Part shown: positions 6,209 to 10,379 of the stretch, piece by piece
Layout: every line of letters begins with the position of its first letter
How positions within the stretch are numbered: the first letter of the stretch is position 1
Source of the DNA: Escherichia phage LL2
Sequence record: NC_048063.1
DNA length: 39,382 nucleotides
Strand: one strand, 5' to 3'
Translations under genes and position numbers: made by a program
The notes under the pieces: model-generated
Database searches by the model: none
The model's input: the letters and a program-made list of their open reading frames with translations, nothing else
Told to the model about the DNA's origin: nothing

Positions 6209-6481
6209 ATGGGACGTATCTATAGCGGCAACCTGTACGATTATAAAGATGCGGTAGCGCGTCTACAGAAAGACCATGACGTGACCGTGAAGGTGGAGTC
6301 ATTCAGCTATGAAAACCCAGCGAAGATGTGCAGGTCATCCGGTGAGGTTCTCCGCGTGTTCACATGCTCAGGGCATCCGGTGGCATCCAGAACCTTCGAG
6401 CATAGCGACAGCGATGTACAAATCAACGCGCAGACTGCATGGCTCCGTAAGGTTCACAGCGATTTGAAACACTGGAAGTAA
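6209..6481 (+). CDS. 1.2: Gene 1.2-like protein (host dGTPase inhibitor family), 90 aa
   Basis: MGRIYSGNLYDYKDA... and C-terminal ...DLKHWK resemble T7 gp1.2 (MGRLYSGNL...QLKDWK); stop inside next promoter. Confidence 0.7.
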   Translation: MGRIYSGNLYDYKDAVARLQKDHDVTVKVESFSYENPAKMCRSSGEVLRVFTCSGHPVASRTFEHSDSDVQINAQTAWLRKVHSDLKHWK

Positions 6482-6501
6482 TAACCCTCACTAACAGGAG
6501 A
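6479..6501 (+). promoter_or_regulatory. Phage RNAP promoter (phi1.3-like) TAATAACCCTCACTAACAGGAGA
   Basis: Consensus match. Confidence 0.7.
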
Positions 6502-6502
6502 A

Positions 6503-6556
6503 TCCTCAAGGTCATCTTAATTGGTGGCCTTTGTGATTCGAACTGATTAACTTTCA
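6503..6556 (+). promoter_or_regulatory. RNase III-site hairpin repeat (R1.3-like)
   Basis: CCTCAAGGTCATCTTAATTGGTGGCCTTTGTGATTCG. Confidence 0.45.
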
Positions 6557-6575
6557 ACCAATGAGGAACAACCGT

Positions 6576-7622
6576 ATGAACATCTTCAATACCAACCCAT
6601 TCAAAGCTGTGTCATTCGTAGAATCTGCCGTTAAGAAAGCGCTGGAGACCTCCGGCTACCTGATTGCTGACATTAAGTACGATGGTGTGCGCGGTAACAT
6701 CGTGGTTGACAACGTGGCTGAGGCTGCATGGCTGTCCCGTGTGTCCAAGTTCATCCCGGCGCTGGAACATCTGAACGGTTTCGATAAGCGCTGGCAACAA
6801 CTGATGAATGATGACCGCTGCGTTTTCCCTGATGGCTTCATGCTGGATGGCGAACTGATGGTCAAGGGCGTAGACTTCAACACAGGGTCTGGCCTGCTGC
6901 GTACCAAGTGGCTCAAGAAGGATAACGCCGAGTTCCATAACGTAATGGTCACACCAGACATGCTCAAGCCACGTAAGGTGGGAGTAGCTAAACGGGTTCG
7001 CACCCCCTTTAAGTTGGACACTAAGCGCCTGAGCGTGCGCCTGTATGCTGTCATGCCGATTCACATTGCGGAGTCTGGCGAGGACTATGATGTACAGAAC
7101 CTGCTGATGCCATATCATGTGGAAGCCATGCGCTCTCTTCTGGTCGAATACTTCCCGGAAATCGAGTGGCTTATCGCTGAGACCTACGAGGTCTACGATA
7201 TGGATTCGCTGACTGAACTGTACGAAGAGAAGCGTGCCGAAGGTCACGAGGGTCTCATTGTGAAAGACCCACAAGGCATCTACAAGCGAGGCAAGAAGTC
7301 TGGCTGGTGGAAATGCAAGCCTAATGACGAAGCCGATGGTGTTATTCAGGGTGTCAATTGGGGTACGCCGGGTCTTGCAAACGAAGGTAAAGTTATCGGG
7401 TTCTCTGTGCTTCTTGAGACTGGTCGTCTGGTTGACGCCAACAACATCTCTCGCGCATTGATGGATGAGTTTACCGCGAATGTTAAAGAACATGGCGAGG
7501 ATTACTACAACGGGTGGGCCTGCCAGATTGGATATATGGAGGAAACACCTGATGGCTCATTGCGACACCCCTCATTCACCTGCTTCCGAGGAACTGAGGA
7601 CAATCCACAAGAGAAAGTATAA
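6576..7622 (+). CDS. 1.3: ATP-dependent DNA ligase (gene 1.3)
   Basis: MNIFNTNPFKAVSFVESA...IKYDGVRG (adenylation lysine motif KYDG) and C-terminal GWACQIGYMEETPDGSLRHPSFTCFRGTEDNPQEK match T7 ligase; start chosen at second ATG with GAGGA RBS. Confidence 0.9.
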   Translation: MNIFNTNPFKAVSFVESAVKKALETSGYLIADIKYDGVRGNIVVDNVAEAAWLSRVSKFIPALEHLNGFDKRWQQLMNDDRCVFPDGFMLDGELMVKGVDFNTGSGLLRTKWLKKDNAEFHNVMVTPDMLKPRKVGVAKRVRTPFKLDTKRLSVRLYAVMPIHIAESGEDYDVQNLLMPYHVEAMRSLLVEYFPEIEWLIAETYEVYDMDSLTELYEEKRAEGHEGLIVKDPQGIYKRGKKSGWWKCKPNDEADGVIQGVNWGTPGLANEGKVIGFSVLLETGRLVDANNISRALMDEFTANVKEHGEDYYNGWACQIGYMEETPDGSLRHPSFTCFRGTEDNPQEKV

Positions 7623-8025
7623 GTTATACCGGGAGGCTCCTTCGGGAGTCGTTTCCGCCTCTGGTAAACCTTTAGGGTATAAGCGGAAAGATGGCTACTG
7701 GATTCTCTCTTACGGTGGTAAACAAATGCTGGCACATCGTGTGGTCTGGATGTTGACCCACGGTGAAATCCCGGAAGGTATGGTCATTGACCACATCAAC
7801 AGGAACCCTAGTGATAACCGTATCGAAAACCTTCGGTGTGTCACTCAAGCTGTTAACTTATCTAATGTTGACGTCCGGTCTCATTGTTTAAGTGGCGAGA
7901 AGTATATTGCCCTTGACAAGAGAACCGGACGTTTTGCCGTTCGTATCAGGCGCAAATCCCACGGAACCTATGGAACCCTTGAGGAAGCTATATCCGTGCG
8001 AGATGCTGCCATTAACCCTCACTAA
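7552..8025 (+). CDS. Freestanding HNH homing endonuclease with AP2-like DNA-binding tail
   Basis: HNH motif AHRVVWMLTHGEIPEGMVIDHINRNPSDNRIENLRCVTQAVN; C-terminal YIALDKRTGRFAVRIRRKSHGTYGTLEEA resembles AP2 domain; GGAGG RBS before ATG 7552; overlaps ligase 3' end by about 70 nt. Confidence 0.7.
   Translation: MAHCDTPHSPASEELRTIHKRKYKLYREAPSGVVSASGKPLGYKRKDGYWILSYGGKQMLAHRVVWMLTHGEIPEGMVIDHINRNPSDNRIENLRCVTQAVNLSNVDVRSHCLSGEKYIALDKRTGRFAVRIRRKSHGTYGTLEEAISVRDAAINPH
7631..7656 (+). terminator. Candidate early terminator-like hairpin (TE-like), GGCTCC-TTCG-GGAGTC followed by GTTTCC
   Basis: 6-bp stem with UUCG tetraloop 9 nt after ligase stop, same position and CCTTCGGG core as T7 TE; U-tract is weak and the element lies inside the HNH ORF. 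Confidence 0.35.
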
Positions 8026-8032
8026 CAGGAGA
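8010..8032 (+). promoter_or_regulatory. Phage RNAP promoter (phi1.5-like) CATTAACCCTCACTAACAGGAGA
   Basis: Consensus match; contains the stop codon of the HNH ORF. Confidence 0.7.
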
Positions 8033-8040
8033 CACACACC

Positions 8041-8118
8041 ATGTGGCTTATCCTATTCGCTATCGTCGCAACGCTTGGATTAATGGCTGCCGACGACAAC
8101 ATTTGGCCTGATTGTTAA
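8041..8118 (+). CDS. Micro-ORF, 25 aa hydrophobic peptide (gene 1.5-position)
   Basis: MWLILFAIVATLGLMAADDNIWPDC; AGGAG RBS 9 nt upstream; immediately after promoter. Confidence 0.3.
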   Translation: MWLILFAIVATLGLMAADDNIWPDC

Positions 8119-8130
8119 GGAGACAACATC

Positions 8131-8388
8131 ATGCGTTTACACTTCAACACATCAAACGGTATCTTTTCGGTTCGCCGTGAAGACCGCTCTACAGCAGTGG
8201 CCTCTGAGCGCAACGCCAAGCTGCCGCTGATTGGTTCGGTCGTACCATTGTCGCCGCGTGTTCACCTACTGATAACTCGTGGAGAGTTCATTAAGGCGAT
8301 GAACAAAGAGCGCCCACATCTGGAAGCCGTGGTAACTTACTGGCCTCGCATCCGTCTGTTCGTTAAGTGGATTAAGGAGGTGCTGTAA
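8131..8388 (+). CDS. 1.6: Gene 1.6-position protein, 85 aa, unknown function
   Basis: Strong RBS AAGGAG; size and position match T7 gene 1.6 (88 aa). Confidence 0.6.
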   Translation: MRLHFNTSNGIFSVRREDRSTAVASERNAKLPLIGSVVPLSPRVHLLITRGEFIKAMNKERPHLEAVVTYWPRIRLFVKWIKEVL

Positions 8389-8867
8389 TGTTACAACATC
8401 ATTGGAACAAACCAGACTTAGAGGCTCGCTTCCCGGTTAACTCTGCCGTTCGTTATTCAGGAGCGAACCCTTTGTTCAAGGGTCTGACCGGAACAGTGCA
8501 GGGCTACTCTAACACTGGTCGAGTCAATGTTCGCTTCGGTGTTCGTGAGGCTGAGGTACACCCTGCCGTACTAATCCCACTACCGAAAGTCGGCCAGAAG
8601 GTTGACGCGCCGAAATCAGAAGTCAAGTCTGACGTGACCCATCCGAACCACTACATGCTGTTCGACAACGTGGAAGCCATTGAGGTTATCGCCCGGTCAA
8701 TGACCGTAGAGCAATTCAAAGGCTACGTGCTGGGGAACATCCTGAAATACCGTCTGCGTGCTGGTAAGAAATCCGAACTGGCAACGATGGAGAAAGACCT
8801 TAAGAAAGCGGCTTTCTATCAGGAACTGTTTGACAAGTATAAGGGGCTGTGCTATGACGCTTCGTGA
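8388..8867 (+). CDS. 1.7: Gene 1.7-like protein (nucleotide kinase family), 159 aa
   Basis: ATG overlaps previous stop; RBS AAGGAGG; C-terminal [16 protein letters not shown]...[13 protein letters not shown] resembles T7 gp1.7 conserved region. Confidence 0.65.
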
Positions 8868-9902: not shown

Positions 9903-10379
9903 ATGGAACTTAGAGAGAAACTAAAGGCTTACAGCGAAGTTTCTCATAACGGGTGCTGGGAGTGGCAACGCTACCGGATGCCCTGTGGTTACGGTAGGAT
10001 TAGACACGGAGGCCGGATGGAACTAACGCATCGTCTATCCTACCTAGCATTCAACGGGGATATACCTGATGGTCTTGTTGTTCGACATAAGTGTGACAAC
10101 AAATGCTGCGTTAACCCTGAGCACCTTACGCTGGGTACTCAAAATGACAACGTTAAGGATGCAATAGACCGTGGTCAATTCGTCTACAGGGAGAACCCGA
10201 AAGGTGCAAAGCACCACATGGCTAAACTTAATGAGAAACAGGTTATGGAGGTTTACAACTCGACACAGACCCAAAGCAGCCTAGCAGAGACCTATGGTGT
10301 ATCTCGACAATTAATCAGCGCGATTAAGAGAGGTAAACTATGGCAGCACGTTACGCAGCACGCGGAGTTAAACGAGTAG
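9903..10379 (+). CDS. Freestanding HNH homing endonuclease with C-terminal helix-turn-helix
   Basis: HNH core RHKCDNKCCVNPEHLTLGTQNDN; C-terminal SLAETYGVSRQLISAIKRG looks like an HTH; occupies the position of T7 gene 2.8. Confidence 0.75.
   Translation: MELREKLKAYSEVSHNGCWEWQRYRMPCGYGRIRHGGRMELTHRLSYLAFNGDIPDGLVVRHKCDNKCCVNPEHLTLGTQNDNVKDAIDRGQFVYRENPKGAKHHMAKLNEKQVMEVYNSTQTQSSLAETYGVSRQLISAIKRGKLWQHVTQHAELNE

Follow-up and report, generated by a model that had tools for sequence, protein, structure and literature searches.

The gene 1.45-type HNH endonuclease reading frame of Escherichia phage LL2: a start within the ligase gene, a stop within promoter phi1.5 and a putative cassette including the ligase 3' third

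Gene 1.45 between ligase and promoter phi1.5

The stretch of DNA analyzed here, referred to as the window, comprises 39,382 nucleotides (nt) of Escherichia phage LL2 (NC_048063.1) and represents a T3/phiYeO3-12-type genome (Teetrevirus). Its segment from 7000 to 8500, which is 96.6% identical to phiYeO3-12 DNA, harbors an open reading frame (ORF) for a predicted HNH-AP2 homing endonuclease (7552..8025 including the stop, plus strand, 157 amino acids) located between the ATP-dependent DNA ligase gene 1.3 (6576..7622, plus strand) and the phage RNA polymerase promoter phi1.5 (8010..8032, plus strand). The ORF overlaps the 3' end of the ligase gene. Its start codon, ATG 7552-7554, lies in the +1 frame relative to the ligase and 71 nt inside the ligase gene, which terminates with TAA at 7620-7622, and its own stop codon is the TAA at 8023-8025 within the promoter. 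Both positions had been claimed in a preliminary description of this DNA and were confirmed. The ligase is collinear with the annotated ligases of phiYeO3-12 and AP5 and contains the Pfam domains DNA_ligase_A_M (residues 10-248) and DNA_ligase_C (residues 249-306). Promoter phi1.5 is one of eleven exact matches to the 23-nt T3-type pattern TTAACCCTCACTAACAGGAGA on the plus strand of the window, compared to none expected by chance.

The ORF and its odd placement are already known. They correspond to gene 1.45 of T3/phiYeO3-12-like phages, which has been in GenBank since 2001, and the finding itself therefore adds little. The phiYeO3-12 record (AJ251805; NC_001271) lists a 'gene 1.45, homologous to HNH endonuclease' of identical extent, which starts inside ligase gene 1.3, contains a 16-nt 'putative early transcriptional terminator TE' and has its stop codon spanned by promoter phi1.5. 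The LL2 product shares 98.5% identity with the phiYeO3-12 protein (CAB63597), from which it differs by two residues, Tyr26 instead of Asp and, near the C-terminus, Ser instead of Ala. The record of Escherichia phage CLB_P1 also calls its copy 1.45. In full-text literature searches, no functional study of gp1.45 was found. The comparative points presented below (the embedded start, the OB cassette, the borrowed stop and the hairpin within the ORF) appear to be undescribed in the papers searched and are incremental.

The ATG at 7552 is made by the ligase codons GAT-GG and is preceded, at a distance of 9 nt, by the Shine-Dalgarno (SD)-like motif GGAGG (7538..7542, plus strand), which is part of the ligase codons for Met-Glu. 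Start codons were compared in 13 HNH-positive lineages belonging to Teetrevirus, Przondovirus, Teseptimavirus, Kayfunavirus and Ningirsuvirus. All 13 have an equivalent start at the same ligase codon pair (Asp/Asn/Ser-Gly), which is an ATG in twelve lineages (GAT-GG or AAT-GG) and a GTG in Zappy, where the pair begins with the Ser codon AGT (AGT-GG). The GGAGG motif 9 nt ahead of the start is likewise present in all 13 lineages and also in most HNH-less phages. No other in-frame ATG, GTG or TTG is conserved in these lineages ahead of the HRxxW motif. The internal ATG at 7726 (Met59) was detected in the Teetrevirus lineage only; it is absent from KP32, KKP3708, JeanTinguely, Ebrios, L100, W2B, the Kayfunaviruses and the P0012 type, and the non-Teetrevirus lineages read H[L/Q/V/I]LAHR at this position.

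Upstream of ATG 7726, codons 39-58 (GKPLGYKRKDGYWILSYGGKQ; 7666..7725, plus strand) correspond to the N-terminal strands of an I-HmuI-like fold. Nei-Gojobori counts revealed that synonymous sites of these codons are saturated while replacements are almost nil (12 synonymous and no non-synonymous differences between KP32 and KKP3708), i.e. the codons are under strong purifying selection and the stretch 5' of ATG 7726 is therefore most likely translated. Alignments with distant homologues and with I-HmuI begin at about residue 36, and canonical members of the family have a length of 150-180 amino acids. Together with the conserved start, these data support the conclusion that the long form beginning at 7552 is required, as proposed in the preliminary description, and that the 7552-equivalent is the sole conserved start. 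The additional statement that HNH residues are encoded 5' of the only internal ATG was right with regard to the upstream residues and wrong with regard to the word 'only', since Met67 and Met77 follow Met59.

The first 24 codons of the ORF (7552..7622, plus strand) form a leader in the +1 frame of the ligase tail. Within this leader, the AlphaFold2 (AF2) model contains a confidently predicted helix at residues 10-21 (7579..7614, SEELRTIHKRK), which was placed by MAFFT on the canonical N-terminal helix of the family. Homology of residues 1-42 to the canonical N-terminus was nevertheless rejected as unsupported, because a hidden Markov model of 83 canonical N-termini gave scores of 1-2 bits and scored +1-frame peptides of HNH-less phages no worse than the leader. 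An extra constraint on synonymous sites of the ligase in the overlap was looked for as well and not found (proportion of synonymous differences, pS, 0.63 vs 0.64 in the adjacent region). Nothing in the data pointed to a fusion of ligase and HNH by frameshifting, although no test was aimed at this possibility.

The start of the gene has been annotated in conflicting ways, evidently because the ORF has no start codon downstream of the ligase. Public annotations begin at the ligase-embedded ATG in phiYeO3-12, JeanTinguely and Ebrios, farther upstream in KP32 and KMI1, at internal ATGs in Patroon, GP-5, KKP 3708, JSS1 and CLB_P1, and at a GTG eight bases past the ligase stop in PMBT12, and the ORF is unannotated in the records of W2B and Zappy. 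In the GenBank records of ten loci (L002, L004, L005, L006 and L173-L178), at least five different starts or no annotation at all were encountered. Against these incompatible annotations, the comparison fixes the start at the ATG embedded in the ligase gene.

The protein is predicted to be composed of an I-HmuI-like HNH nuclease domain joined to an AP2-like DNA-binding domain. Residues 60-102 (7729..7857, plus strand; IDHINRNPSDNRIENLR...N..N) matched Pfam HNH_3 with 75.9 bits (E = 1.9e-21), well above the curated cut-off of 24.8. The product shows the catalytic-residue pattern of His-Me finger nucleases (DH...N...N); D80, H81, N93, L94 and R95 are invariant in 94 homologues, and the conservation of N102 and N105 is 90% or higher. 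In the AF2 model (predicted local distance difference test, pLDDT, 91.4), for which I-HmuI (1u3e) was the closest structure in the PDB (Foldseek E = 6.7e-5, probability 1.00), a beta-beta-alpha-metal fold similar to that of a solved member was found, and two strands were predicted at residues 50-54 and 57-60. The C-terminal part (7903..8013, plus strand) was modelled as a three-stranded sheet (residues 119-122, 127-132 and 135-140) plus a helix (residues 143-154). A profile of the 94 homologues (family profile A3) retrieved I-HmuI with E = 2e-11 and plant AP2/ERF structures with E = 3e-9 at best; the AP2 structures matched were those of WRI1, TEM1 and ERF096 (E = 3e-9 to 7e-3), and many homologues carry PF00847. 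The LL2 protein alone reached 13-14 bits for PF00847 (E = 0.06-0.11), which is below the cut-off of 33.3. It is thus the family profile together with the model that justifies the designation HNH-AP2.

At the 3' end, phi1.5 supplies the last five codons of the ORF and the TAA stop. This arrangement is not restricted to LL2, as the stop codon is positioned inside the local promoter type in seven of seven window-type lineages. The sequence of the protein tail varies with the promoter: T3-type promoters yield a terminal AAINPH, T7-type promoters ANTTH or a stop at the promoter's own TAA, and K11-like promoters VIN, AN or AND. Even a single HNH lineage may have two tails, a T3-type one in P0010 and a T7-type one in L100 and P0013. 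In Dickeya phage W2B (L175, ~980-1010) the loop of a T7-type TE (GGCTCACC-TTAA-CGGGTGGGCC) contains the stop codon; this HNH gene borrows its stop from a terminator rather than from a promoter. In the P0012-type lineage, the HNH gene is followed by a T7-type TE and gene 1.4, while the gene of the Kayfunaviruses has its own stop and then a strong terminator. The flush placement was seen in every genus examined, in agreement with the tight fit into a regulatory junction that had been noted for LL2. In HNH-less relatives of KP32 (L121, L125, L136 and other Przondovirus loci), the next promoter opens with the ligase stop codon TAA (TAATTAGGACCCACTATAGG); these HNH-less Przondovirus loci do not possess a hairpin between ligase and promoter.

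A probable cassette comprising the ligase 3' third and the HNH gene

Alignments with HNH-less relatives revealed a replaced segment that is larger than the ORF. LL2 and AP5 are 97-100% identical up to approximately 7295, 70-78% identical over 7296-7622, and again 97-100% identical from the first base of the promoter onwards. Five pairs of HNH-positive and HNH-less phages from three genera were compared, and divergence starts at 7309-7314 in all of them. The right junction is clear in five pairs as well (the LL2, KP32, JeanT, Ebrios and L100 lineages), in which the two partners become similar again from the promoter on. The preliminary description had envisaged an insert whose edges could be defined by alignment to insertion-free relatives. 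The alignments do show edges, namely those of a divergent tract (7309..8009) that is larger than the ORF and includes the OB domain of the ligase.

The left arm of this cassette or co-conversion tract is the ligase 3' third encoding the OB-fold domain (7309..7622, plus strand). In LL2 it is 84-85% identical to HNH-positive phages of other genera compared to 77% to HNH-less phages of its own genus. The 5' two-thirds of the gene group in the opposite way, own-genus HNH-less phages being closer than HNH-positive phages of other genera; they are 97.8% identical to AP5 and 87.8% to phiYeO3-12. Among HNH-positive Teetreviruses, the section from ~7300 to the ligase stop contains at most two mismatches (at least 99.4% identity) while the upstream part of the ligase differs by several percent, and a near-identical cassette was found in different Teetrevirus backbones. 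From these comparisons of sequences, the mobile unit appears to extend over ~7309..8009 and to combine the OB domain of the ligase with the hairpin and the HNH gene. Since the start codon lies within the OB part of this unit and would travel with it, the spread of a gene that lacks a start codon of its own can be explained. The position of cleavage would fall somewhere inside the replaced interval.

A left edge of the insert at 7666, with the upstream sequence regarded as a backbone TE, was first suggested by a switch in synonymous divergence (dS) and omega and by the AP5 alignment. This assumption was weakened by the retention of the Ala/Ser-Pro-Ser-Gly peptide in hairpin-less lineages and in the free-standing P0020, and by the complete lack of a hairpin in HNH-less Przondoviruses. 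Mosaicism was also observed in the NTase domain of the LL2 ligase, where a block at 6876..7075 shows 28-44 mismatches per 100 nt to phiYeO3-12 and Patroon. The surrounding sequence is otherwise similar to these two phages, and the block itself is nearly identical to AP5.

The distribution of the gene is sporadic. Homologues with at least 60% identity were found in 62 phage records, compared to approximately 797 records in which the ligase passes the same 60% threshold (~8% across the subfamily). A DNA comparison with 126 close relatives identified only nine that carry the HNH segment, i.e. whose coverage of the 7000-8500 query reaches at least 80%. AP5 and many others have an empty site consisting of the ligase stop, a T7-type TE and the promoter. 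Decayed copies exist in KP32-like viral contigs (L091 and L095, ~1450-1620), in which the middle of the gene was lost by an internal deletion while the leader, the hairpin and both gene ends were kept, so that the frame jumps from ...APSGVVSAT into the 3' end. On the other hand, the catalytic motif is intact and purifying selection was detected in all HNH-positive lineages. The sporadic distribution, the empty sites, the decayed copies and the co-conversion-like tracts support the view, already expressed in the preliminary description, that the ORF known as 1.45 is probably a free-standing homing endonuclease gene.

Related genes were seen at other positions. A second HNH_3 ORF of the window (9903..10379, plus strand, 158 amino acids, Pfam E = 7e-15) lies between the SSB gene (2.5) and the endonuclease I gene (gene 3). 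Coverage of this insert was restricted to 5 of 246 close relatives, which suggests a further free-standing homing endonuclease gene. In some relatives, a further HNH endonuclease gene is situated directly upstream of the ligase (Patroon, L002, 1-104; L170, 1083-1520), so that an endonuclease gene can be present on each side of the ligase. Among the relatives that are not linked to a ligase, the closest is P0020 (L169, 45-503; 46% identity), which possesses an SD sequence (AAAGGAGG) and an ATG of its own and shares the KLDPASPSGVVS...GKP motif. It is located directly upstream of a gene with a weak match to the N-terminus of the terminase large subunit (E = 0.0016; 18.5 bits, below the cut-off of 22).

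The hairpin inside the reading frame

The hairpin GGCTCC-TTCG-GGAGTC (7635..7650, plus strand), annotated as a putative TE in phiYeO3-12, occupies codons 28-33 of the LL2 ORF, which encode Ala-Pro-Ser-Gly-Val. It has a G+C-rich stem of 6 bp and a UUCG loop (-9.7 kcal/mol, or -13.3 kcal/mol with an extension) and is directly followed by GTTTCC / GTTTCCGCC. In the L100 lineage a U-tract is present (TCTTTTTGCGTTTC), and hairpin plus U-tract of L100 match a bona fide Kvp1-type TE at 38 of 43 positions (p < 0.0005), while the similarity of the window-type hairpin to the TE of T7 and AP5 is weak (p = 0.04-0.7).

In an alignment of 15 sequences, 86.7% of the cells were paired compared to at most 49% in slid controls, and the covariation score of 0.212 was reached by none of 500 shuffles. 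The third positions of the Ala and Gly codons form a pair in all 15 sequences, with four different pair types. The wobble position in the loop varies (TCG, TCT, TCC, TCA) while those in the stem are either fixed or compensated. Moreover, synonymous divergence is low across codons 25-38 and saturated in the codons that follow. These patterns argue for conservation of the hairpin at the RNA level; its terminator activity is putative, which is also the wording in AJ251805.

The distribution of hairpins and terminators across lineages is suggestive. All seven lineages that have no terminator after the gene possess a hairpin of -9.7 to -15 kcal/mol, and all three lineages with a weak or absent hairpin possess a strong terminator at the 3' end of the HNH gene. 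A clean complementarity of 5' hairpin and downstream terminator holds only in part, since JSS1, CLB_P1 and Ebrios have both. Sequestration of the SD sequence by CCUCU 3' of the hairpin was seen in one minimum-free-energy fold; this candidate was dropped in view of a z-score of +0.77 and because KP32 and Ebrios have not conserved the pairing partner. No Rfam family matched anywhere in the window.

Proposed expression and spread, and comparison with known systems

Taken together, it is quite probable that gene 1.45 of LL2 is a free-standing HNH endonuclease gene which borrows its start from the ligase and spreads as a cassette of ~7309..8009. In this arrangement the gene would be devoid of translation signals of its own. 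Ribosomes would start at ATG 7552 behind the GGAGG motif of the ligase, translate the leader of 24 codons across the ligase tail, pass through the hairpin (7635-7650), synthesize the nuclease and stop at the TAA inside phi1.5. Three phage promoters (5628, 5970 and 6481) are located upstream on the same strand, and transcripts of the phage polymerase should therefore cover both the ligase gene and the ORF. The hairpin may act as a weak early terminator or attenuator that stops part of the early transcripts made by the host polymerase. The full-length message would then derive mainly from phage-polymerase transcripts starting at the three upstream promoters, and the out-of-frame internal initiation might keep the yield of the enzyme low. 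It is conceivable that the enzyme nicks or cuts HNH-less genomes of co-infecting phages between ligase motif V and the promoter, and that the cassette is copied into the cleaved genome during repair. An HNH-less recipient would in this way have the 3' third of its ligase replaced, by which the start codon is brought along.

Several observations weigh against parts of this explanation. In the papers searched, expression, cleavage or transcript data on gp1.45 were not found. The start signal also occurs where there is no HNH gene: the same GGAGG-N9-ATG is present in the ligase tail of T7 itself (L115) and of approximately 45% of the HNH-less relatives, the loci concerned being T7 and about 30 others. 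It opens +1-frame ORFs of mostly 9-24 codons, and a few of 27-96 codons that run into gene 1.5. Thus, the presence of SD sequence and ATG alone proves nothing. The ligase protein sequence makes an open +1 frame easy to keep, and no selection on the leader peptide as such was detected (omega in the HNH frame ~1 or above). The start signal would have pre-existed in the ligase and would later have been co-opted by the HNH gene. It might even be assumed that the upstream open frame is accidental and that the real product is a short form of 99 amino acids starting at ATG 7726, as it is annotated in two GenBank records (Patroon and GP-5). Pfam HNH_3 begins exactly after Met59, a GGTGG is located ~7 nt 5' of ATG 7726, and the frequently open +1 frame of HNH-less ligase tails would also fit. 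However, the replacement of this ATG by H[LQVI]LAHR in all other lineages, the strong purifying selection on codons 39-58, which form strands of the I-HmuI-like fold, and the length of 150-180 amino acids of canonical family members make the short form highly improbable. The left boundary raises a different question. It falls on the end of a 30-nt block that all phages share in conserved form and that encodes KKSGWW of motif V, and also on the border of the Pfam NTase and OB domains (residue 248/249), and may therefore be a favoured crossover point and not a cut site. Together with the common mosaicism of this ligase and the existence of decayed copies, this could mean that the HNH gene is no longer mobile, i.e. 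a domesticated or dying passenger, and that the shared ligase 3' segment results from ordinary modular recombination. We consider this very unlikely, because the catalytic motif is intact and selected for in all lineages, nearly the same cassette is found in Teetreviruses with different backbones, both boundaries are repeated in five pairs that represent three genera, and the ligase 3' third groups with HNH-positive phages of other genera instead of HNH-less phages of its own.

The claim that the ORF crosses a TE-like hairpin was correct insofar as the hairpin lies inside the ORF and is annotated as a putative TE, while its likeness to a terminator was not substantiated by consensus scan or folding energy. 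A U-rich tract after the stem is absent in the window, the consensus scan detected no terminator-like site in 6400..8400, and the folding energy is ordinary (z = -0.99), the stem being followed by no more than GTTTCC. The encoded peptide, Ala-Pro-Ser-Gly-Val, dictates four of the six core pairs and is conserved even without the hairpin. The structure could thus be a by-product of coding for this peptide, without any regulatory role, and the endonuclease would be expressed from every transcript crossing it. The inner pairs dictated by the peptide, the retention of the motif without a hairpin in W2B, the P0012 type and the free-standing P0020, the missing U-tract and the weak similarity to the TE of T7 and AP5 are compatible with this possibility. 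It is rendered rather doubtful by the Ala/Gly wobble-wobble pair, kept in all sequences by four pair types while the loop wobble drifts, by the low synonymous divergence that ends just downstream of the hairpin, by the match between the L100 element and the Kvp1-type TE, and by the restriction of weak 5' hairpins to lineages in which a terminator follows the gene. A more far-reaching proposal combines several points: the gene would have given up its own start and stop, a fixed cassette would have spread across at least five genera of the Studiervirinae, the hairpin would be an early terminator carried by the element and used by the host genome, and the classical TE of the T7 group would share its origin, either because the TE was captured or because it is the relic of a decayed copy. 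As a whole, this combination is unlikely to hold.

If gene 1.45 moves as a cassette with the ligase 3' third, it would be a clean example outside the T4 group of a free-standing endonuclease gene that uses the translation signals of its neighbour and drags part of the neighbouring ligase along when moving. There are also practical consequences for therapeutic or synthetic phages of the T7/T3 type, since swapping or deleting the gene also touches the ligase OB domain and phi1.5, and the same edit touches the only hairpin between the early and the middle region.

The catalytic fold of the LL2 enzyme, including the N-terminal strands, resembles that of I-HmuI of the Bacillus phage SPO1 (37% identity over 89 columns). 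I-HmuI is intron-encoded and has another DNA-binding C-terminus, whereas the LL2 gene is free-standing and its product ends with an AP2-like domain. The T7 early terminator TE is located at the same position, ~10 nt past the ligase stop, and has the same C(UUCG)G design as the LL2 hairpin. The latter, however, has a stem of 6 bp and no U-tract, and its similarity to the TE sequences of T7 and AP5 is not significant. With regard to its organization, the gene seems to fit a syndrome that has already been described for free-standing endonucleases of T4. In this phage, five free-standing endonuclease ORFs overlap the upstream ORF, the cleavage sites are far from the endonuclease gene, and mobE and segF combine an overlapping start with a 5' terminator and distant co-conversion of a neighbouring gene (PMC2988022). 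The adjoining essential gene and the overlap with the upstream ORF are shared features, dependence of expression on upstream promoters would be another, and the putative hairpin within the LL2 ORF would be the counterpart of the intrinsic terminator in the 5' coding region of the T4 genes. On the other hand, LL2 differs from T4 in the size and place of the overlap, which at 71 nt (24 codons) far exceeds that of the T4 genes and is part of the ligase coding body, in a stop codon taken from a promoter, in the HNH-AP2 family and in the phage group.

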